Part shown: piece after piece, positions 15,688 to 25,883 of the stretch
Numbering within the stretch: the first letter of the stretch is position 1
How the letters are laid out: each line of letters starts with the position of its first letter
Sequence record: DRR723986_3079
Reading direction: 5' to 3' (one strand)
DNA length: 55,415 bases
The notes under the pieces: model-generated
Seen by the model: only the letters and a program-made list of their open reading frames with translations
Told to the model about the DNA's origin: nothing
The model's database searches: none
Position numbers and translations under genes: made by a program

Positions 15688-16887
15688 ATGTCCGGCCTTT
15701 TCCTTGAAACCAGTGCAGACATCGGGCCGATCCTGAGGCTGCGGCTGGCAGGCTTTGTCCGCTCACTGCGTGACAGTGGCTTCAAGGTCGGATTGGCCGA
15801 GACCCGGGATGCTAGCCGGTTGCTGTGTTCGCGGATGATTCAGCGCCCCGGAAGCTTGAAGGCGGCCTTTCGCAGTCTTTTTTGCGGACGCTTGTCTGAC
15901 TGGCAGCGTTTCGACGACATCTTCGATGCCTATTGGATCGGCAAGGGTGTCAAATCTGGCGTGAAGGTTACCGGGACGAGTACGCGCAAGGGCATGAAGA
16001 CCATTCGCGAGTTGATAGACGCAAGTGGTAACCATCAGGAGACAATTGCAGGCGATGTCGAACGCCTCCCCGGCGAAGAGGATGAGGCGTGCGACGACGC
16101 TCCCTCCGGGCGGCGGGAAGGTGCGAGCATTGCCGAAAACCTCGGCCAGCTGGATTTTCGACATCTCAGCGATCCGGAGGCGGTGAAACAGGCACATGAG
16201 CTTGCCGAACGGCTCGCACGGGCAATGCGCGTAAGACTGACCCGCAGGGATCGTCAAAAGCGAAAGGGCCGAAAGCTGGATCTTCGCAGAACCATCCACC
16301 GGTCCATTGCCCATGGCGGAGCACCTATTGAACTTGTGCGTAAAGGCCCTCGTGAGAAACAGTTGCGATTGGTGATCCTGCTCGATGCGTCCGGGTCGAT
16401 GAACAACTACACGGGTGTCTTCACTCGGTTCGTGCACGGTTTGCTTGATAGCTTCCGCGAAGCAGAAGCGTTTCTTTTTCATACCCGTCTTGTGCACGTC
16501 TCCTCAGCCCTTTCTGAGCGGGACGCCGGCCGTGCTCTCGATCGCATGGGGCTGATGGCGCAAGGGATCGGTGGCGGCACGAAGATCGGCGCGGCGCTGG
16601 CCGACTTCAACAGATGGCACGCCGCCCGGGTCGTCCACTCGCGCACCTGCGTCCTGATCCTGTCAGATGGCTACGACACAGGCACGCCGGAAGCACTTGG
16701 CGATGAGATGGCACGGTTACGTAGGCGCTGCAGGCGCATTGTCTGGCTCAACCCGCTGCTTGGCTGGCAGGGATATGAACCGACAGCCGGAGGCATGGCC
16801 GCCGCCCTGCCCCATGTCGATTTCTTCGCGCCAGCCCATAACCTCGCCAGCCTTGAAGCCCTAGAGCCTTATCTTGTGAGACTTTGA
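15688..16887 (+). CDS. coxE: VWA-domain CODH accessory protein
   Basis: LLDASGSM, GGGTKIG, ILSDGYD, WLNP. Confidence 0.92.
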   Translation: MSGLFLETSADIGPILRLRLAGFVRSLRDSGFKVGLAETRDASRLLCSRMIQRPGSLKAAFRSLFCGRLSDWQRFDDIFDAYWIGKGVKSGVKVTGTSTRKGMKTIRELIDASGNHQETIAGDVERLPGEEDEACDDAPSGRREGASIAENLGQLDFRHLSDPEAVKQAHELAERLARAMRVRLTRRDRQKRKGRKLDLRRTIHRSIAHGGAPIELVRKGPREKQLRLVILLDASGSMNNYTGVFTRFVHGLLDSFREAEAFLFHTRLVHVSSALSERDAGRALDRMGLMAQGIGGGTKIGAALADFNRWHAARVVHSRTCVLILSDGYDTGTPEALGDEMARLRRRCRRIVWLNPLLGWQGYEPTAGGMAAALPHVDFFAPAHNLASLEALEPYLVRL

Positions 16888-16890
16888 ACG

Positions 16891-17778
16891 ATGGGAGATG
16901 TCGAGATGAAGCATTCTGTTCCCGTGTCCGGTAAAGAGGCCTCACCAGAGGTCGTGCAGGACCTGCCGCGCCTGATGAACCGTTTGCAGAGTGACAACGA
17001 ACCCTTCGTTCTGGCAACCGTTGTACGCACAATATCGGTGACCGCGGCCAAGGCGGGCGCGAAGGCCGTGATCGACAGGAATGGAGACATTGTCGGCGGC
17101 TGGATCGGCGGTGGCTGCGCAAGATCGGCAGTCATCAAGGCGGCAAAGTCCGCTTTTGAAGATGGTCAGACACGATTGATCTCCCTTCAACCGGCGGACC
17201 TGCTGGCGGAAATCGGCGTGGAAGCCGGTGAGGAGCGCGAAGGCATTCAGTTTGCCCGGAACATGTGCCCGAGCCAGGGAACCATGGATATATTCATAGA
17301 ACCGGTTCTGCCGCGGCCCACGCTTGTCATCTACGGCGCCAGTCCGGTTGCCGTTGCCCTTGCGAGCCAGGCGCCTTCCATCGGATTTGACCTGACCTTC
17401 TGCGCGCCTGCAGAAGAGCTGTCCGTCTTTTCAGGTGCCGGAAAAAGAGCGGAAGGGTTTGACAGTCCCGTTCGAAGCAACGGGCATATCTACTCCATTG
17501 TTTCGACCCAGGGACGCGGCGATCTGGTGGCCCTGAAGGCAGCTCTTCTGACGGATGCGCGCCACATCGGGTTTGTCGGTAGCCGCCGAAAGATTGCAGC
17601 CCTGAAGGCGAAATTGCGCGAGGAAGGCGTAGCGGATCAGACCCTCGACCGGATCAAGGGGCCCGCAGGCCTTGATCTGGGAGCCATTGCACCGGAAGAA
17701 ATTGCACTCTCTATCCTGGCGGAACTTTTGATGATCCGCCGCAGCGGACACCGCCAGACCAACATCCATCACGTTTGA
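16891..17778 (+). CDS. coxF: XdhC/CoxF-family Moco insertion protein
   Basis: GWIGGGC, CPSQGTMDIFIEP, GPAGLDLGAIAPEEIALSI; exact start uncertain. Confidence 0.88.
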   Translation: MGDVEMKHSVPVSGKEASPEVVQDLPRLMNRLQSDNEPFVLATVVRTISVTAAKAGAKAVIDRNGDIVGGWIGGGCARSAVIKAAKSAFEDGQTRLISLQPADLLAEIGVEAGEEREGIQFARNMCPSQGTMDIFIEPVLPRPTLVIYGASPVAVALASQAPSIGFDLTFCAPAEELSVFSGAGKRAEGFDSPVRSNGHIYSIVSTQGRGDLVALKAALLTDARHIGFVGSRRKIAALKAKLREEGVADQTLDRIKGPAGLDLGAIAPEEIALSILAELLMIRRSGHRQTNIHHV

Positions 17779-17799
17779 CCCCACCAGGGAAGCAATCAC

Positions 17800-18405
17800 A
17801 TGCAAATGAACGACAGTCAGCGGATCGAAGCTCCAAAGCACAAGGTTTGGGAGGCATTGAATGATCCGGAAGTCCTGAAGGCCTCTATTCCGGGATGCGA
17901 AGACCTGATCAAGCATTCCGATACTGAACTGGAGGCGAAGGTACGTCTCAAGGTGGGCCCGGTAAAAGCAACTTTCGGCGGCAAGGTGACGCTCAACGAT
18001 CTCGATCCGCCTAACGGCTACACCATTGAAGGCGAAGGTTCCGGCGGGGTAGCCGGCTTTGCCAGAGGTGCTGCCAAGGTTCATCTGGAAGAAGACGGTC
18101 CTGATGCGACGATCCTTCACTACGAGGTTGATGCGAAGGTTGGCGGCAAGCTGGCGCAGCTTGGTGCCAGACTGATCGATTCAACCGCCAAACGGCTTGC
18201 CGGTGAGTTTTTTACCGCCTTCGGAGAACAGGTCGCCCCGGGAAAACCGGCTGCGACGAACGAGGTGGAAGCCGAGACCGCGCCAGCAGACGCTTCTCCT
18301 TCAGATGGCGAAGAGAAGAAGGGATGGATCAAAGGCCTTTTCACCGGCAAGAAAAAGCAGGACGTGGCTGGTGACGAGGGTAAGATCGACGAACCTGCGG
18401 AGTAA
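17800..18405 (+). CDS. coxG: CoxG (SRPBCC-fold) protein
   Basis: VWEALNDPEVLKASIPGCE, GGKLAQLGARLID. Confidence 0.92.
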   Translation: MQMNDSQRIEAPKHKVWEALNDPEVLKASIPGCEDLIKHSDTELEAKVRLKVGPVKATFGGKVTLNDLDPPNGYTIEGEGSGGVAGFARGAAKVHLEEDGPDATILHYEVDAKVGGKLAQLGARLIDSTAKRLAGEFFTAFGEQVAPGKPAATNEVEAETAPADASPSDGEEKKGWIKGLFTGKKKQDVAGDEGKIDEPAE

Positions 18406-18733: not shown

Positions 18734-18830
18734 GAATACCAATTGTTGTTGATTGGTTTCGACGAGCTCAATCCAGAATCTATTTCTTAAATTATTGAAA
18801 CAATGTACGAAATTTCCGCCTTCGCCTTTC

Positions 18831-18846
18831 TGGCATTCCCCTTGCT
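18831..18846 (+). promoter_or_regulatory. sigma54 (-24/-12) promoter
   Basis: TGGCATTCCCCTTGCT with GG at 18832-33 and GC at 18844-45, canonical spacing. Confidence 0.75.
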
Positions 18847-18861
18847 TTGGTTATGATGTGC

Positions 18862-18972
18862 AGCGCGCCTAGGGATCCGGTCGCAAGACGACGCAGGACC
18901 GAGAGGTGCAAGCCGGTTGAGAGGCACATGCCGACATAGACCGGTGACACGGCGGGACAAAAACCCGGGAGA
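18862..18972 (+). ncRNA. Guanidine-I (ykkC-yxkD) riboswitch
   Basis: CTAGGGATCCG...GGACCGAGAG...ACACGGCGGGACAAAAACCCGGGAG; lies upstream of guanidine transport and hydrolase genes. Confidence 0.88.
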
Positions 18973-19080
18973 CAACTGCACGAGGTTTCGCGCGCGCGAA
19001 CCTGCTCCCGGCCGTGCGCAAAAACCTCATGACGTAAGTCCGGTTCTGATGACCGGGCCCAAGACAGGAGACGCGCACAG

Positions 19081-20151
19081 ATGTTGAAATCGATTGCCAA
19101 AGCTTCCCTCCTCGCCGCAGCGCTGACGCTGCCTCTTTCTCTCACTTCGGCCAGGGCCGAGGAAAAGACGGATTTCAAGGTCTGCTGGTCCATTTATGTC
19201 GGCTGGATGCCCTGGGGCTATCTGCAGGACAGTGGCCTCATGAAGAAATGGGCCGACAAGTACGACATCTCCGTCGAGATCGTTCAGATCAACGACTACG
19301 TGGAGTCCATCAATCAATACACCGCAGGAGAATATGACGGCTGCTCCATGACCAATATGGATGCCCTTTCGATCCCGGCTGGCGGCGGTGTCGATACGAC
19401 TGCGCTTATCGTCGGTGACTATTCCAACGGCAACGACGGCATCATCCTGAAGGACAAGTCCGAACTTGCCGATATCAAGGGACAAAGCGTCAACCTGGTG
19501 GAGCTTTCCGTCTCCCACTACCTGCTTGCACGTGCGCTCGACACGGTTGGTCTCAGTGAACAGGATTTGACGGTCGTCAATACCTCAGATGCAGACATGA
19601 TTGCTGCCTATCAGACGCCGGATGTCACGGCGGTGGTCACCTGGAATCCGCTCCTGTCTGAAATCGAAGCGGAAGCAAATGCCACCAAGGTGTTCGACAG
19701 CTCCGGCATTCCGGGCGAAATCATCGATATCATGATGGTCAATACCGAGACGCTTGCGGACAATCCTGCCTTCGGAAAAGCCCTTGTCGGAGCGTGGTAC
19801 GAGCTGATGGCGATCATGTCGTCAGACAGTGACGAAGGCGTTGCTGCACGCACCGCCATGGCCGAAGCCTCCGGCACGGACCTTGCCGGCTACGATGCGC
19901 AGCTCGCGACCACCAAGATGTTCTACACGCCCGCAGAGGCGGTCGCGTTCACCAAATCCGCAGAACTTCTCGAGACGATGAAATTCGTTGCCGAGTTCCT
20001 TTTCGACAAGGGCATTCTGGGTGAAGGAGCGCCCAGCCCTGAATTCGTCGGTGTCTCTTTCCCGGATGGATCGATCTATGGCGATACCGGAAACGTGAAA
20101 CTGAAATTCGACCCGAGTTTCATGACGATGGCAGCAGAAGGCACGCTCTAG
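19081..20151 (+). CDS. ABC substrate-binding protein, urea-carboxylase-associated type (probably binds guanidine)
   Basis: Signal peptide; WSIYVGWMPW, INDYVESINQYTAG, DYSNGNDGI, VELSVSHYLL. Confidence 0.88.
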   Translation: MLKSIAKASLLAAALTLPLSLTSARAEEKTDFKVCWSIYVGWMPWGYLQDSGLMKKWADKYDISVEIVQINDYVESINQYTAGEYDGCSMTNMDALSIPAGGGVDTTALIVGDYSNGNDGIILKDKSELADIKGQSVNLVELSVSHYLLARALDTVGLSEQDLTVVNTSDADMIAAYQTPDVTAVVTWNPLLSEIEAEANATKVFDSSGIPGEIIDIMMVNTETLADNPAFGKALVGAWYELMAIMSSDSDEGVAARTAMAEASGTDLAGYDAQLATTKMFYTPAEAVAFTKSAELLETMKFVAEFLFDKGILGEGAPSPEFVGVSFPDGSIYGDTGNVKLKFDPSFMTMAAEGTL

Positions 20152-20223
20152 GCTTCCTTTGCTGATCCGGTGTTCCGGCGCCTCGGCGCCGGAGCCGCAG
20201 CCATAGACTGATCGGACCGTTTC

Positions 20224-21045
20224 ATGCGTATCATCAACCGGAAACCCTCCCGGGTCACCGCCCTGGCGCTTGGGCTCCTGCCTTTCGTGCTGACATTGGT
20301 CGCCTACGCGATTGCCAGCCATTATCGCCGGCTCGACAATCCGGCGGACAAGCTTCTCCCCTCCATCACCAGCATGGGAGAAGCCTTCTGGCGCATGGCG
20401 GCAGTGCCGGACCGGAGGTCGGGAGACCTTCTGCTCTGGTTGGATACTTTCGACAGTCTCTGGCGTCTTGGGACAGGGATGGCAGTGTCGACGCTTCTGG
20501 CAATCTCCCTTGGCATTGCAATCGGCTTCATTCCCCATATCCGAAGCGGACTGGCACCTTATCTCGCGACATTCTCGCTGATACCGCCGATCACCATCCT
20601 GCCGATCCTGTTCATCACCTTCGGTCTTGGCGAACTCGCGAAAATCGCCCTGATCGTGATCGGAACGGCACCGGTGATGATCCGTTCCACGGCCCAGGCG
20701 GTTCTGGACATTCCGCGGGAGATGATCATCAAGGCGGAAACACTTGGGGCCAGCGTCTTGCAAATGGTTACGCGGCTCGTGTTGCCGCAGGTGCTTCCGC
20801 ACCTGATCACCAGCCTGCGGCTTTCTCTCGTGCCAGCGTGGATCTTTCTGATTTCAGCCGAGGCCATCGCCTCCACGTCAGGGCTTGGGTACCGGATTTT
20901 CCTGGTGCGTCGCTATCTCGCGATGGATGTGATCCTGCCTTACGTCGTCTGGATCACGCTGCTGGCCTTCCTGCTCGACAGAGCCCTGCTCCTCCTGTCG
21001 CGCCGCGCTTTTCGCTGGCACCATCTGGGAGGTGACGCGCTATGA
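20224..21045 (+). CDS. ABC permease (TauC/SsuC type)
   Basis: Hydrophobic helices; KAETLGAS loop; SAEAIASTSGLGYRIFLVRRYLAMD. Confidence 0.9.
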   Translation: MRIINRKPSRVTALALGLLPFVLTLVAYAIASHYRRLDNPADKLLPSITSMGEAFWRMAAVPDRRSGDLLLWLDTFDSLWRLGTGMAVSTLLAISLGIAIGFIPHIRSGLAPYLATFSLIPPITILPILFITFGLGELAKIALIVIGTAPVMIRSTAQAVLDIPREMIIKAETLGASVLQMVTRLVLPQVLPHLITSLRLSLVPAWIFLISAEAIASTSGLGYRIFLVRRYLAMDVILPYVVWITLLAFLLDRALLLLSRRAFRWHHLGGDAL

Positions 21046-21884
21046 ACACTGCGTCCAAACTCTCGGTCCAGAACCTGGCAAAGTTATACGACGGCGTGCC
21101 TGTTCTCGAACGGGTCAACCTGGAAGTCCAGACCGGGTCTTTTTGCACGATCGTTGGAGCATCCGGCTGCGGAAAATCGACATTCCTGCGGATGCTGCTT
21201 TCCCAGGAACATCCAAGCCGTGGACAGATCCTCCTGGACGGCGCTCGCTTGCCACTTGAGCCGACACCCGATCGCGGGATCGTCTTCCAGAAATACTCGG
21301 TGTTTTCGCATCTGACCGTGGCTGAAAACCTCATCCTTGCGCAAGAGTTTGAATCGTCGCGCTGGACCGGGCGGCTTTTTGGTACTTCCCGCAAGGCGGC
21401 TTTTGGATCGTCCGACGACCTGCTTGACAGGATCGGGCTGCGACCAGCGGCAAACAAGTATCCGGCGCAGCTGTCCGGTGGCATGCAGCAACGTCTCGCG
21501 ATCGCCCAGGCCTTGATCAAGAAGCCAAGCATCCTGCTGCTCGACGAGCCTTTCGGCGCGCTAGACCCGGGTATACGCGTCGATATGCATGAATTGCTTC
21601 TGGGGCTCTGGAAAGAGTTGTCCATGACGGTTTTCATGGTGACGCACGATATTCACGAGGCCTTCAAGCTCGGCACGCGTCTGCTGGTGTTCGACAAGAT
21701 CCGCCACGACCCTCAAGCGCCACAAGCCTACGGCGCGACCATCACCTACGACCTGCCACTCAAATCGCCAACAGGAGCATCCTTGCGGTCTCCGGAGGCC
21801 ATCGCAGGTGCAATCGGCGCCCCACAGTCAAACAAGCCCACTCCGTCTTTCCAAAGCATCCATACCCCAAACAATCAGGAATGA
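21042..21884 (+). CDS. ABC ATP-binding protein
   Basis: GASGCGKST, LSGGMQQR, LLLDEPFGALD. Confidence 0.93.
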   Translation: MNTASKLSVQNLAKLYDGVPVLERVNLEVQTGSFCTIVGASGCGKSTFLRMLLSQEHPSRGQILLDGARLPLEPTPDRGIVFQKYSVFSHLTVAENLILAQEFESSRWTGRLFGTSRKAAFGSSDDLLDRIGLRPAANKYPAQLSGGMQQRLAIAQALIKKPSILLLDEPFGALDPGIRVDMHELLLGLWKELSMTVFMVTHDIHEAFKLGTRLLVFDKIRHDPQAPQAYGATITYDLPLKSPTGASLRSPEAIAGAIGAPQSNKPTPSFQSIHTPNNQE

Positions 21885-21894
21885 GGACCATCCC

Positions 21895-23133
21895 ATGAGT
21901 TTCAATCGAGCCTCAGGCCCCAGGACGCACCACCTTGCCGCAGGTCATTTCACCCGAGCCCCCAACCGAAGACAGCATCATCCTGACTTCGACAAACTGC
22001 AATTGCGGGGTTGGAAGGCCGCTGAAAAGGAAGGTGCCCTGCCCTCTGCCGCGTGGGAAAAGGAAAAAGCCTGGGCACTGCGAATGGGATTGACAGGATC
22101 GGATAGTCTCACCGACAAATCGATCCCGACCTTTGCCCGTGGAGAACTGCCCCACTATGCGGGGATCAACACCTTCCTGAAGGCGCCCTATATCGAGGAT
22201 GTGACAAAGGTCGGGGCTTATGATGCGGCCGTCATCGGCATCCCTTTCGATGGGGGCACCACTTACAGACCTGGTACACGGTTCGGGCCGCAAGGAGTTC
22301 GGAAGATTTCCGCGCTCTACACGCCCTACAACTACGAGATGGGTGTCGATCTTCGGGAACAGATGACGCTTTGCGATGTCGGTGACATCTTCACCATTCC
22401 TGCCAATATCGAGAAGACGTTCGACCAGATTACGCGGGCGGTCTCGCACGTCGCATCGTCCGGAGCCTTGCCGATCATGATCGGCGGCGATCATTCAATC
22501 GGATTTCCTTGCGTACGCGGGATTGCCCAGTGCACGTCCAAGCGCATTGGTATCGTGCATTTCGACCGGCATATCGACATTCAGGAAAAGGACCTGGATG
22601 AGCGGATGCATACGACGCCCTGGTTCCATGCGACCGATCTCGTCAACGTTCCGGCCGTCAATCTGGTCCAGATCGGAATTGGTGGCTGGCAGGTTCCGCG
22701 AGAAGGGGTGGAAGTTGCCCGGGAGCGGAATACCAACATCTTTACCATGCGCGATGTTGAGGAACTGGGATTGGCGGAAACGGCCGCACGGGCGCTGGAA
22801 CTGGCATGGAAGGACGCAGATGCAGTCTATATCTCGTTCGATATCGACAGTGTCGACTGCGGCTTCGTGCCCGGTACCGGCTGGCCGGAACCAGGTGGCT
22901 TCCTGCCGAGAGAGGCACTTGAGCTGGTGTCGCTGGTCGCGAAGGAAGGCATCTGCGGTCTGGAGGTCGTAGAAGTTTCACCACCTTACGATTGCTCCGA
23001 CATCACAGCCCTTCTGGCAACTCGGGTGATTGTAGATGTTCTCGGGACCCTGGTTTCCCATGGAAAAATGGGTTCGCATAAATCCATCATCGACAAGCCG
23101 GTGTCCATTCCGGCCGGTCCGGACGTGGAGTAA
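21895..23133 (+). CDS. gdmH: Guanidine hydrolase (ureohydrolase family, Ni-dependent GdmH-like)
   Basis: N-terminal extension with TFARGELPHYAGINTF; GGDHS, HFDRHID, SFDIDSVD, PGTGWPEPGG; riboswitch context; start at the ATG at 21895 after GAGGA. Confidence 0.85.
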   Translation: MSFNRASGPRTHHLAAGHFTRAPNRRQHHPDFDKLQLRGWKAAEKEGALPSAAWEKEKAWALRMGLTGSDSLTDKSIPTFARGELPHYAGINTFLKAPYIEDVTKVGAYDAAVIGIPFDGGTTYRPGTRFGPQGVRKISALYTPYNYEMGVDLREQMTLCDVGDIFTIPANIEKTFDQITRAVSHVASSGALPIMIGGDHSIGFPCVRGIAQCTSKRIGIVHFDRHIDIQEKDLDERMHTTPWFHATDLVNVPAVNLVQIGIGGWQVPREGVEVARERNTNIFTMRDVEELGLAETAARALELAWKDADAVYISFDIDSVDCGFVPGTGWPEPGGFLPREALELVSLVAKEGICGLEVVEVSPPYDCSDITALLATRVIVDVLGTLVSHGKMGSHKSIIDKPVSIPAGPDVE

Positions 23134-23137
23134 GGCG

Positions 23138-23650
23138 ATGGCGCGACATCATCGCGGGCACGATCACCATGTTCACCACGATCATGAACATGGTCATCAC
23201 CACCACCACCACACACATGACCACGATCATGGAAGTCTCGCCGGACATAATCACGTGGGCCCGGACCATCTGCATTCTCATGTTCATGGGGCCTCGCATG
23301 CGGACCGGGCCGAAGAACTGCAGGCACTTGCGGTGAGCTTCATCGACGGCTTTCGGGCTGCCGACGACAAGACCAGTTACCTGCGTCTTGCAGGCGTCCC
23401 GTTTCACCGCCCCGGTGCCGATGGTCTCATACAGCACCTTGTCGACGCAAAGATCGTCAGCAATTGGCAGGTCGGCACAGCCTCGCCGGCCTTTGCTTCC
23501 CGAGAACTCGTCTACATGAGTTTTCCAGGTTCAATGGTCCAAGCCCGGGAAACCATGACCTTCACCTTTGTATCCCTGTCGCAACGGTCAGACATTGACC
23601 TCATCGACATCCTCACCACTCGTCTGGCCCATGGAGATATCGCAGAATGA
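23138..23650 (+). CDS. His-rich protein of unknown function, candidate Ni chaperone
   Basis: 25 His in the first 54 aa, then a ~115-aa globular domain; starts 4 nt after the gdmH stop. Confidence 0.8.
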   Translation: MARHHRGHDHHVHHDHEHGHHHHHHTHDHDHGSLAGHNHVGPDHLHSHVHGASHADRAEELQALAVSFIDGFRAADDKTSYLRLAGVPFHRPGADGLIQHLVDAKIVSNWQVGTASPAFASRELVYMSFPGSMVQARETMTFTFVSLSQRSDIDLIDILTTRLAHGDIAE

Positions 23651-23880
23651 AACAGCTTTTGATGACGTCAATTCTTGCCTTGGCATCCACCCCTGCATTT
23701 GCACACCCTGGTGCGCACGATCATCTGACCGGTTGGCAAGGCGCAGGTGAGCATCTGCTTGGCTCGCCATTTCATCAGCTGCTGCTCGTCGTGGCTGTTA
23801 GCGGGCTGGTTCTGGCCGTTTCCCTGGTCCGGAAATCGAAAAAAACCACGAGGAAACAGCCTGTAGAACGCAGGTCCTGA
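23647..23880 (+). CDS. Small HupE/UreJ-N-terminus-like membrane protein
   Basis: Signal peptide ending AFA, then HPGAHDH, HLLGSPFH, one TM helix and a basic tail; ATGA overlap. Confidence 0.65.
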   Translation: MKQLLMTSILALASTPAFAHPGAHDHLTGWQGAGEHLLGSPFHQLLLVVAVSGLVLAVSLVRKSKKTTRKQPVERRS

Positions 23881-23924
23881 GGGTCTCTCTCGTTAAAGCG
23901 GGGCCCTTGATACCAACCGAGGTG

Positions 23925-25883
23925 TCAGAGCCCCGCCAAAGTGCTTTTGGAATGATCCGAGAAGAACAGGGTCGTTATGTCGTCGATCGCCATCGGACCG
24001 CCGAACAGGTAGCCTTGGCCGATGGTGCAGCCGATATCGACCAGTACATCGCGTTGCTCGACTGTCTCGATGCCTTCGATCAAGACCTGAGAGCCCATGG
24101 TTTCGGCAATACCAAGGACCATCTTGAGAATATCGCGAATTTTCTTGTCCTTGACCGCCTTGGTGGCAAACGACCTGTCGATCTTGATTTCGTCCCAGTC
24201 AAAGTCCGTCAGGTAAGACAGGGCGGAATAACCGACGCCAAAGTCATCCAGCGAAATGCCGATACCCAATGATCGCAACTCAACGAGTGTCGTCTGAATG
24301 CGGCGCAGATCGCTCATCAGGGTTGTTTCGGTCACTTCCAGTTTCAGCCTGGAGGCTGGCAGACCGGTCCGACCGAGGCATTCGTCGAGCATTGCAACGA
24401 CGTCGTCGCTCAGAATTTGCGCAACAGAAAGGTTGACCGACAGGCTCAGGTCCGATGGCAACAACTGTACTTCCGAACACGATGTTTCCAGGATCTTCCA
24501 TCCCAGCGATACGATATCGCCATTGCGTTCAGCGATCGGGATGAATTCCGAGGGGGAAATCCAGCCCAGTTCGGAATGGTACCAGCGTGCCAAAGCTTCC
24601 ACGCCGAAGATACGTCCGGTCATGAGATTGAACTGAGGCTGGAAGTGCGGAAGGCATTCGTTCGCCTCAATGGCGCGGGCAAGTGCGTTTTCGACGATTG
24701 TACGCCGTTCAATTTCCGCGCGCATGGCCGGTTGGTAGGTCACGACGCGGCGGCGGCTGTGGCTGACGGCATTACCAACCGCGAGATCCGCATTGCGAAT
24801 GATGTCGGTGGCATCTCGCTCGACGGTGGTTGAATCCGCATAGCCGATAGCTGGTGAAATCAGGAAGGATCCGAGTGCCGTTGGGACCGGGCGCAGGAAG
24901 ATGTCGTGGATCCGGTTTGCGACGACAGAAGCAGTCAGCCCAACCTCTTCATCACTTACAGTCATGAGGAGAAATCCCTTGCCTCCTGAGCGGGCAAGGC
25001 AATTTACACCTTCCATCCGGTCTACCGCGTGACGCAACAGGTCCGCAGTCGATGCCAGGATAGCTTCCTCCGTTACAAGACTGAACTTGTTGATAGCCGG
25101 CAGTCTGGACTCCAGATCGATGTTGAGAATGCTCAAGGTCTGATCAGGAGCAAGTGTATCGTGCGTAGAGCGCACGATCTCTGCAAAGACACGGGAATTT
25201 ACCAGGCCTGTAACACTGTCGTGGTCCAGCCGGTGCTCCAGAAGCCTGGTTTGCTCGCGAGTTGCCTCTGCCTGTCCTTGCAGCACCTGGCTGCGCTTGT
25301 TGGAGAACCAGATCCATCCAAGGCTGACCAGAAGGAAAACAACAACGAGCGCGTCCTGTACAATCTGGTGGAAATGAAAGCTCTTTCTCGCCGCCGACAT
25401 TTGCTTGGCAGCTTCCTGGGTCACCATCTGATTGATTTGTTGAAGGGAACTTCCTATCCCCTGCAGGATGATCAGTGCATTGCTCACGGAGGTCTGGTCA
25501 TCGAGCGTATCCAGGAACGGTTTCACCCGGTTGCTCGTACGAACGATGTGAACCAGTTTGTCCTGGATGTAGTCCGACGGCCCCACAATTTCGCTATAGG
25601 CGTCGCTGGGCCACGTTTCGAAGGCGTTCAGCAGTGCTTCGTAGGTTTTTCCAGCCTCTGCAGCATCTTCCGGGCTTTTCAAGGCACTGTACCGTGCAAT
25701 CAGTTTTTCCAGGGCTGTAGTGTTAAAGCGCAGCGTGTCGTTGAGGACCGAACGTTCCAACTGATCCTTGTGAAGGTAGTCGGCTTGCGCGCTATAGAGC
25801 GAGTAGGCGTTTACACCGAGCAAAAGTGTAAGGGAGGCGCAAAGCGCCGGAAATCCTATTCGCAACAGTTTATCAAAAATCAT
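23925..25883 (-). CDS. Membrane-anchored degenerate-GGDEF/EAL c-di-GMP phosphodiesterase
   Basis: Two TM segments; GGKGF in place of GGDEF; VEALARW, DDFGVGYS, KIDRSF, EGIET. Confidence 0.88.
   Translation of the reverse strand: MIFDKLLRIGFPALCASLTLLLGVNAYSLYSAQADYLHKDQLERSVLNDTLRFNTTALEKLIARYSALKSPEDAAEAGKTYEALLNAFETWPSDAYSEIVGPSDYIQDKLVHIVRTSNRVKPFLDTLDDQTSVSNALIILQGIGSSLQQINQMVTQEAAKQMSAARKSFHFHQIVQDALVVVFLLVSLGWIWFSNKRSQVLQGQAEATREQTRLLEHRLDHDSVTGLVNSRVFAEIVRSTHDTLAPDQTLSILNIDLESRLPAINKFSLVTEEAILASTADLLRHAVDRMEGVNCLARSGGKGFLLMTVSDEEVGLTASVVANRIHDIFLRPVPTALGSFLISPAIGYADSTTVERDATDIIRNADLAVGNAVSHSRRRVVTYQPAMRAEIERRTIVENALARAIEANECLPHFQPQFNLMTGRIFGVEALARWYHSELGWISPSEFIPIAERNGDIVSLGWKILETSCSEVQLLPSDLSLSVNLSVAQILSDDVVAMLDECLGRTGLPASRLKLEVTETTLMSDLRRIQTTLVELRSLGIGISLDDFGVGYSALSYLTDFDWDEIKIDRSFATKAVKDKKIRDILKMVLGIAETMGSQVLIEGIETVEQRDVLVDIGCTIGQGYLFGGPMAIDDITTLFFSDHSKSTLAGL

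Follow-up and report, generated by a model that had tools for sequence, protein, structure and literature searches.

A histidine-rich protein family encoded directly after the guanidine hydrolase gene of alphaproteobacteria, a candidate nickel accessory protein

The guanidine operon

The DNA stretch DRR723986_3079 (55,415 nucleotides (nt), hereafter the window) carries at positions 18858-23880 of its + strand an operon made of a guanidine-I riboswitch, the genes encoding an importer of the ATP-binding cassette (ABC) type, a guanidine hydrolase gene of the gdmH type, the gene of a His-rich protein of 170 amino acids (aa), here called HisX, and a small last gene encoding 77 aa. An original prediction had pointed to these five elements, which are all found on the + strand, and had proposed that they form a guanidine-assimilation operon of an alphaproteobacterium; this is supported, the top match of HisX being named Roseibium aggregatum. 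HisX is the main subject of the present work. It is a conserved protein family that has received no name, it is strictly linked to gdmH, and it is likely to represent a new family of nickel accessory proteins for GdmH. The features of the locus, in positions of the window, are the following.

18830..18857, + strand: promoter-like site (CTGGCA, 16 nt, TATGAT) found by a consensus scan, immediately 5' of the riboswitch
18858..18973, + strand: guanidine-I riboswitch aptamer (Rfam RF00442, full model 1-107, 64.8 bits, E 2.7e-09)
19081..20151, + strand: substrate-binding protein (SBP) of the ABC importer, 356 aa (TIGR03427; Pfam NMT1/NMT1_2)
20224..21045, + strand: permease of the ABC importer, 273 aa (Pfam BPD_transp_1, 70.6 bits)
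21042..21884, + strand: ATPase of the ABC importer, 280 aa (Pfam ABC_tran, 109.4 bits), with a 4-nt overlap with the permease stop
21895..23133, + strand: GdmH-type guanidine hydrolase, 412 aa (Pfam Arginase, 259 bits; PDB 7esr/7oi1 and 9fek)
23138..23650, + strand: HisX, 170 aa, His-rich, directly 3' of gdmH, candidate nickel accessory protein of GdmH
23647..23880, + strand: 77-aa protein with a predicted signal peptide and a single predicted membrane helix (topology judged by eye), motifs AHPGAHD and HLLxSPFH
23898..23936, no strand assigned: stable hairpin, possible terminator (RNA fold -33.6 kcal/mol, z -3.2)

The hydrolase matches the Pfam family Arginase (PF00491) with an E-value of 7.1e-77. 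Among the solved structures, it matches above all the Synechocystis enzyme (7esr/7oi1, 542.8 bits, E 4.6e-162) and 9fek (531.6 bits); according to published accounts, 7OI1 is GdmH and 9FEK is the guanidinase of Nitrospira inopinata. The next PDB match after the guanidinases is proclavaminate amidinohydrolase, with 177 bits, and agmatinases reach 133 bits at most. In the same way, the score obtained with the agmatinase equivalog TIGR01230 (172.8) lies under its cut-off (174.3). The motifs GGDH (D199, H200), HFDRHID (D224, H226, D228) and SFDIDSxD (D316, D318) are invariant in an alignment of 81 sequences, and the residues given in brackets are those that we take, from the arginase family, to be the ligands of the binuclear metal centre. 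Because of the scores against solved guanidinases, of the metal motifs and of the guanidine-I riboswitch, the sequence is clearly to be read as that of a guanidine hydrolase (GdmH). Its nickel dependence and its specificity for free guanidine are predicted; published accounts describe both of the studied members of this enzyme family as dependent on nickel.

The last three genes of the operon are tightly coupled, as had been noticed before. From the reading of the sequence, the hydrolase start was placed at the ATG 21895, which is preceded by GAGGA and gives a protein of 412 aa. The gdmH stop (23131-23133) is separated by a 4-nt gap from the HisX ATG (23138), itself preceded by GGAG, and the HisX stop and the start of the 77-aa gene share an ATGA overlap (23647-23650).

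The SBP reaches 560.4 bits with NCBIfam TIGR03427, the urea-carboxylase-associated ABC SBP, well above the equivalog cut-off of 333.9. This family assignment, made initially from the letters of the window, thus stands. The idea that such an importer is unusual beside a hydrolase does not, since the cyanobacterial gimABC importer genes are also described beside gdmH.

Linkage of HisX and gdmH

The neighbourhoods of GdmH genes were examined in a scan of species-representative genomes, for the best 80 of 577 GdmH relatives (74-97% identity), the other 497 being left out. A match to the HisX profile is present directly 3' of gdmH, on the same strand, in all 80 loci, which include Roseibium, Stappia, Thalassospira, Hoeflea, Oricola, Bradyrhizobium, Mesorhizobium, Sinorhizobium and many roseobacters. 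In most of them, the inferred HisX start (start-codon rule) lies between -11 and +5 nt from the gdmH stop. An SBP sharing at least 45% identity with that of the window is encoded upstream of gdmH in 68 loci out of 80.

Two samples of 401 genomes each give the same picture. Within the class, the HisX profile matches nine genomes and the GdmH protein (E<=1e-90) 11 genomes. Each of the nine HisX genes is immediately 3' of a gene encoding a GdmH with 74-100% identity, on the same strand, and the order SBP-permease-ATPase-GdmH-HisX is kept in 9/9 loci from other genomes of this sample. The two genomes harbouring GdmH without HisX have more distant GdmH-like genes (53-61% identity). Within the phylum, HisX and GdmH (E<=1e-90) are found in the same six genomes and nowhere else, all of these belonging to the same class; gdmH is directly upstream of HisX in the four new genomes too. 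Since the gene order is kept in 9/9 loci and HisX follows GdmH in 80/80 further loci, the arrangement of the operon is not due to chance. The strict linkage of HisX with gdmH, one-to-one with the alphaproteobacterial GdmH clade, is solid.

The GdmHs linked to HisX also have in common a C-terminal motif, HKxIIDKPV (window 23077-23133, GdmH residues 395-412), of which H395, I399, D400 and P402 are each found in at least 90% of the 81 GdmH sequences. Three GdmH relatives whose genes have no HisX neighbour (L041-L043) lack this motif and end with LGHRxxVM instead. The HKxIIDKPV tail is a possible docking site for HisX.

Two of these relatives are encoded by a single genome (G085, L042:1002-2857 and L043:6009-7878). 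They are distant from the GdmH of the window (53-56% identity), and a full HupE/UreJ permease is encoded directly 3' of each. Neither has a riboswitch or HisX, and one has a LysR regulator ahead. It may be that these enzymes act, as nickel-dependent ureohydrolases, on a different guanidino compound. Actinobacterial GdmH-like genes (57-61% identity) were also found without adjacent HisX or hypAB in L133, a Rubrobacter indicoceani plasmid, and in L134; one of them is adjacent to a urease operon and to the genes of a formamidase and a sodium:solute symporter. Among the 80 loci, L068 comes from a metagenome-assembled genome labelled Anaerolineae. It encodes a GdmH with 84% identity and a HisX nearly devoid of N-terminal tail, and its label could reflect either a transfer or a binning error. 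In a public plasmid record, the pair is labelled "agmatinase family protein" and "hypothetical protein".

Fused GdmH-HisX forms of at least 299 aa were sought and none was found, which is weak evidence. One candidate fusion of 268 aa (P0161) was rejected, since it seems to result from reading through the two genes with a frame shift.

Sequence family and predicted fold of HisX

HisX matches no Pfam family at E<=0.01 and, in NCBIfam, ZrgA alone, at chance level (E 0.009, 15.7 bits for a cut-off of 185). A word-indexed search with its residues 55-170 retrieved 425 proteins; among the 120 matches listed, none has a Pfam domain and every source name is "hypothetical protein". Searching 1.84 billion representatives with phmmer gave 120 HisX matches at E<=0.001, 58 of them at E<=1e-10. 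None of 39 aligned relatives matches a Pfam family consistently, and the HisX profile has no match at E<=10 among PDB sequences. No sequence match of HisX to curated nickel chaperone families such as HypA, HypB, UreE and SlyD was obtained through Pfam, NCBIfam or the PDB profile search. The label DUF1800, attached to HisX by small Protein Atlas clusters (0.97), was dropped, the Pfam scans of the 39 members being without DUF1800. No prior description of a HisX-like protein was found in the titles and abstracts of the literature on guanidine hydrolases and nickel chaperones, where the supplements of the paper reporting the discovery of GdmH may show proteobacterial neighbourhoods.

The AlphaFold2 model, based on a 39-row alignment, predicts a disordered N-terminus and a compact core with a predicted local distance difference test (pLDDT) score of about 97. 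The arm would correspond to residues 1-53 and the core to residues 54-165, which are predicted to form an alpha/beta domain with two helices, six strands and a final helix. A Foldseek comparison of this model with the PDB gave no match at E<=0.001, and in an exhaustive VIA-align comparison with 48,161 chains the best Z was 3.8, none reaching 5. As modelled, HisX would thus have a fold without a solved look-alike, a missing match being no proof of a new fold. A prediction of the complex between GdmH (25-412) and HisX (50-170) gave a score of 0.00; the alignments were unused in it and the partner's own fold was uncertain, so that this score has no bearing either way.

The His-rich arm and the nickel context

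According to the start-codon rule, the N-terminal tail of HisX contains at least five His in 60 of the 80 loci and at least three in 72 of them. A His-rich C-terminal tail is found in none of the 80; more distant relatives have their His tract at the C-terminus. The arm of the window protein carries the semi-conserved motifs GHNH and DHLHSH. Over the 80 loci, GHN occurs in 63, H[LFM]HSH in 55 and the variant QWQxPH in 18, either of the last two being present in 73. Because the His-rich motifs are in the arm and the core has no conserved His or Cys, HisX looks, on its sequence, like a metal-binding appendage carried by a non-metal-binding docking domain.

A HupE/UreJ permease is encoded directly 3' of HisX in L102, L109 and L119 (Mesorhizobium), L113 (Sinorhizobium) and L130, that is in 4/80 loci and in L130; the HupE query used for this search was confirmed against PF04955 (189.5 bits).

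The contigs of other strains harbour in-frame 6-nt insertions in the His tract of HisX at window position 23197, namely CACCAC in runs X1 and X7 and CATCAC in run X2. From strain to strain, the His tract varies in length without loss of the frame.

HypA and HypB

The absence of hypA and hypB from the window, a claim of the original prediction, holds: tblastn searches of the 55-kb window with a Pfam-verified HupE, and with the HypA, HypB and UreG sequences from the nearest genome, gave no match at E<=0.01. Within 7 kb, HypA is encoded in 0/80 loci, and the HypB query reached UreG-like genes alone, in two of the 80. In the class sample, HypA is found in three of the nine HisX genomes and was not found in the other six; HypB over its cut-off was found in none of five HypA-lacking HisX genomes. 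The independence of the HisX loci from HypA and HypB is thus supported across the clade.

Several genomes have urease genes and ureG immediately next to the guanidine operon (G113:C17:36636-37211 and G399:C2:116524-117099, also L069 and L096). The ureG gene of G113 shares its strand with the SBP gene and stops about 240 nt ahead of it; a riboswitch was not detected at this locus. The Rfam 5' ureB small RNA model also matches L033 and L039.

The 77-aa protein

The 77-aa gene follows HisX in six of the 80 loci (Roseibium, Stappia and one Hoeflea) and in the nearest genome (G001), and six homologue clusters of its product were found in all. In five aligned members, a signal-peptide-like N-terminus is followed by the invariant motifs AHPGAHD and HLLxSPFH and then by a hydrophobic helix; the tail is basic. 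We read this gene as a real, lineage-restricted membrane add-on, located in the slot that is filled elsewhere by HupE and outside the core module. The maturation module that had been proposed to stand in for HypA/HypB is therefore kept in part: an unnamed His-rich gene is strictly linked to gdmH without adjacent hypAB, but a two-gene module is not borne out, HisX alone being conserved.

The protein had also been described as mini-HupE-like, a label that is weakly backed. Both proteins have a signal peptide ending with AFA and then a His, they occupy the same operon slot, and hhalign aligns them weakly over the N-terminus and first helix (probability 30%, 36 columns covering the end of the HupE signal peptide and the first motif). 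By contrast, the BLASTP comparison with HupE is not significant (E 0.36), and none of five members of the family matches Pfam HupE (PF04955) at E<=10. HupE/UreJ has about 200 aa and several helices, whereas the 77-aa protein has one predicted helix and lacks the later FHGxxHG-type motif of the HupE alignment. A relationship of the 77-aa protein with the N-terminus of HupE is possible, the backing being weak. The Protein Atlas look-alike cluster obtained with a language model (77 aa, 0.88) has HupE_UreJ in 13% of its members, and DUF6732 comes at 0.77; these are leads only.

The window protein matches DUF6732 (PF20506) with 17.4 bits (E 0.0039), under the gathering threshold of 27 bits, and such a sub-threshold match is obtained with 5/5 members of the family (best E 0.0011). 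A gene that truly belongs to DUF6732 (about 62 bits) runs into the start of the next one, whose CbiX-like product ends with a long C-terminal tail rich in His; a CobH-like gene comes after it. This order is found in all three genomes with DUF6732 (L125:1489-3210 in G001, L124 and L126), the names CbiX and CobH coming from a reading of the unscanned sequences. This gene order suggests a link between the small membrane proteins of DUF6732 and metal (cobalt or B12) metabolism.

Riboswitch, expression and flanking genes

The riboswitch, 5' of the operon and on the same strand, scores above the gathering score of RF00442, which is 63. A riboswitch is found upstream in 6/8 loci of the class sample with Rfam and in 67/80 loci with our own covariance model; of the 13 loci without a match, eight are truncated on their upstream side. 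The promoter consensus scan gave two sites in the region for 2.0 expected; such sites occur there at chance frequency, so that the position alone of the site at 18830-18857 is suggestive. In two of four runs, a contig from an RNA library reaches from the riboswitch through the 77-aa gene. In run X1, this contig starts at 18873 with a depth of 521, and the upstream contig has a depth of 26. These contigs are a weak hint that the operon is co-transcribed from the riboswitch to the last gene, being no proof of a transcript since RNA libraries can contain DNA. In the same way, the position of the promoter-like site and the contig start in X1 weakly hint at a promoter at 18830-18857. Runs X10 and X7 leave parts of the locus uncovered, which carries no evidential weight.

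The hairpin at 23898-23936 stands between the operon end and a convergent gene encoding a GGDEF-EAL protein (23925-25883). A scan for terminators with loops of 3-8 nt listed none after the last gene; the loop of the hairpin is longer, and it could possibly act as a terminator. The upstream flank (15688-18405) carries homologues of coxE, xdhC and coxG, genes of a kind accessory to molybdenum hydroxylases or to CO dehydrogenase.

Proposed role of HisX and alternative explanations

The proposed mechanism is that, in response to guanidine, the riboswitch would turn on the ABC importer and GdmH, and that GdmH would split guanidine into urea and ammonium. The flexible His-rich N-terminal arm of HisX would capture Ni(II) and its compact alpha/beta domain would dock on apo-GdmH, HisX thus filling the place held in cyanobacteria by the HypA/HypB-type pair GhaA/GhaB. 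The last gene (77 aa in Roseibium and Stappia, a full HupE in Mesorhizobium and Sinorhizobium) might help nickel supply across the inner membrane. The sequences show the genes of the operon and their coupling, the strict linkage and His motifs of HisX, and its standing outside known families and folds, whereas the nickel binding, the docking and any GTPase independence are inferred. The reading of the locus as a guanidine-inducible operon in which HisX is a cytoplasmic nickel accessory protein dedicated to GdmH, replacing GhaA/GhaB, is given a probability of about 0.6.

Various observations weigh against this reading. The 80 loci are those of the closest relatives of the window GdmH; moreover, the genome collections overlap, so that the counts are not independent, and related genomes are not independent samples. 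Eight of the 80 HisX members have fewer than three His in either tail (start-codon rule), and the folded core of HisX is without conserved His or Cys, its invariant residues being D77, P117, Y126 and P130. These two last points would be explained if HisX were a structural or regulatory partner of GdmH, such as an assembly or stability factor acting, for example, against the chaotropic substrate, or a regulator of activity, the His tract being secondary. The strict linkage with gdmH fits any obligate partner, and the HKxIIDKPV tail, present on HisX-linked GdmHs and missing in the three HisX-less relatives, fits such a partner too. However, a His-rich arm with at least five His is found in 60 of the 80 members and, over the whole family, at either protein end, five loci have the gene of a HupE nickel permease right behind HisX, and the two enzymes of this family that have been studied depend on nickel according to published accounts. 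We consider a purely structural or regulatory role as unlikely.

The other points against the preferred reading come from nickel chaperones encoded elsewhere. Genome-wide statements rest here on the nearest genome, G001, which has 46% of the sampled words in common with the window sequence and a HisX that is 99% identical. At roughly 1.9 Mb from its guanidine locus, G001 has hypA (118.9 bits) with a neighbouring cobW-family (HypB-like) gene, and it also has a ureG-like gene. UreG over its cut-off is found in all five of the HypA-lacking HisX genomes tested for it. The guanidine locus has ureG as its immediate neighbour in G113 and G399, and in L069 and L096 at a distance of no more than 7 kb. 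Because UreG is present in these tested genomes that lack HypA, urease accessory proteins could carry out the GTP-dependent step. The GTPase-independent nickel delivery proposed initially is therefore not borne out. Nickel could even be inserted entirely by such chaperones (UreE/F/G/D, or HypA/HypB where present), HisX then buffering or storing nickel or feeding these GTPases. Against this, pure storage explains neither the one-to-one linkage with gdmH in every locus examined nor the conserved, well-folded domain without conserved His, and HypA and HypB are missing from most of the HisX genomes tested; this explanation appears about as improbable as a structural or regulatory role.

It might finally be that HisX has a function concerned neither with metal nor with the maturation of GdmH, such as by-product handling or guanidine sensing, and is simply encoded in the same operon. 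In favour of this, HisX is linked to a known function by none of its family, fold and motif comparisons, but it was never seen apart from gdmH and its phyletic profile is the same as that of GdmH in both samples; furthermore, both the His-rich arm and the adjacent HupE genes suggest metal. This makes an unrelated role very improbable. In the other direction, a bolder version of the nickel accessory reading can be formulated. HisX would be a new, alphaproteobacteria-specific family of nickel metallochaperones with a new fold that loads GdmH alone, without any GTPase of the HypB or UreG type. Some lineages would combine it with a minimal one-helix helper of nickel uptake that either arose from the N-terminus of HupE or converged on it. 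This version is tentative and rather doubtful.

The HisX-gdmH pair spans many alphaproteobacterial genera, from marine Roseibium and roseobacters to the rhizobia Bradyrhizobium, Mesorhizobium and Sinorhizobium. If HisX is indeed the nickel donor of GdmH, a new protein family, probably with a new fold, would join the few nickel insertion systems, and a one-gene helper could be used to obtain active guanidinase in heterologous hosts. In addition, the pairs labelled "agmatinase family protein" and "hypothetical protein" could be annotated as guanidine-assimilation genes.

Comparison with known systems

UreE, the nickel metallochaperone of urease, is small and cytoplasmic and serves a single nickel enzyme; its His-rich tail differs in length between species or is absent, and it acts with the UreG GTPase. 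HisX as proposed here would resemble it in its working only, as a small cytoplasmic protein with a variable His-rich tail serving one nickel enzyme. HisX has no sequence match to UreE, and no fold match at Z 5 among the 48,161 chains.

According to published accounts, the cyanobacterial GdmH and the metformin hydrolases use adjacent HypA/HypB-type chaperones, in agreement with what the original prediction had stated of characterised nickel-dependent guanidine hydrolases. The Synechocystis genes gdmH-ghaA-ghaB and gimABC, as described there, share with the operon of the window a guanidine-I riboswitch, an ABC importer, GdmH and accessory genes located directly after gdmH. Whereas the accessory proteins of Synechocystis are HypA- and HypB-like (a zinc-finger protein and a GTPase), the window encodes in their place one unrelated small protein without family or fold match.

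The metformin/dimethylguanidine hydrolase operons of Aminobacter and Pseudomonas are organized as hypA-hypB-mefH alpha-mefH beta-hupE in published descriptions. Like the HisX operons, they associate a nickel-dependent ureohydrolase with nickel-supply genes, and their hupE at the 3' end recalls the HupE that ends the HisX operons of Mesorhizobium and Sinorhizobium. They differ by the presence of HypA/HypB and by a heteromeric enzyme, the operon of the window having a single GdmH and HisX.

The locus of comammox Nitrospira, according to its published description, encodes a close guanidinase (9fek) and has a guanidine-I riboswitch without adjacent HypA/HypB-type chaperone, like that of the window. 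Its transporter is an APC permease instead of an ABC importer. Its authors report that they found no nickel-loading protein and call the mechanism by which guanidinase homologues are loaded without HypA/HypB unclear, whereas a conserved candidate is encoded beside the enzyme in the window. HisX is a candidate answer to this question in alphaproteobacteria. The operon type itself, with its riboswitch, importer, GdmH and nickel accessory genes, is known from cyanobacteria; what differs here is the accessory gene, HisX.

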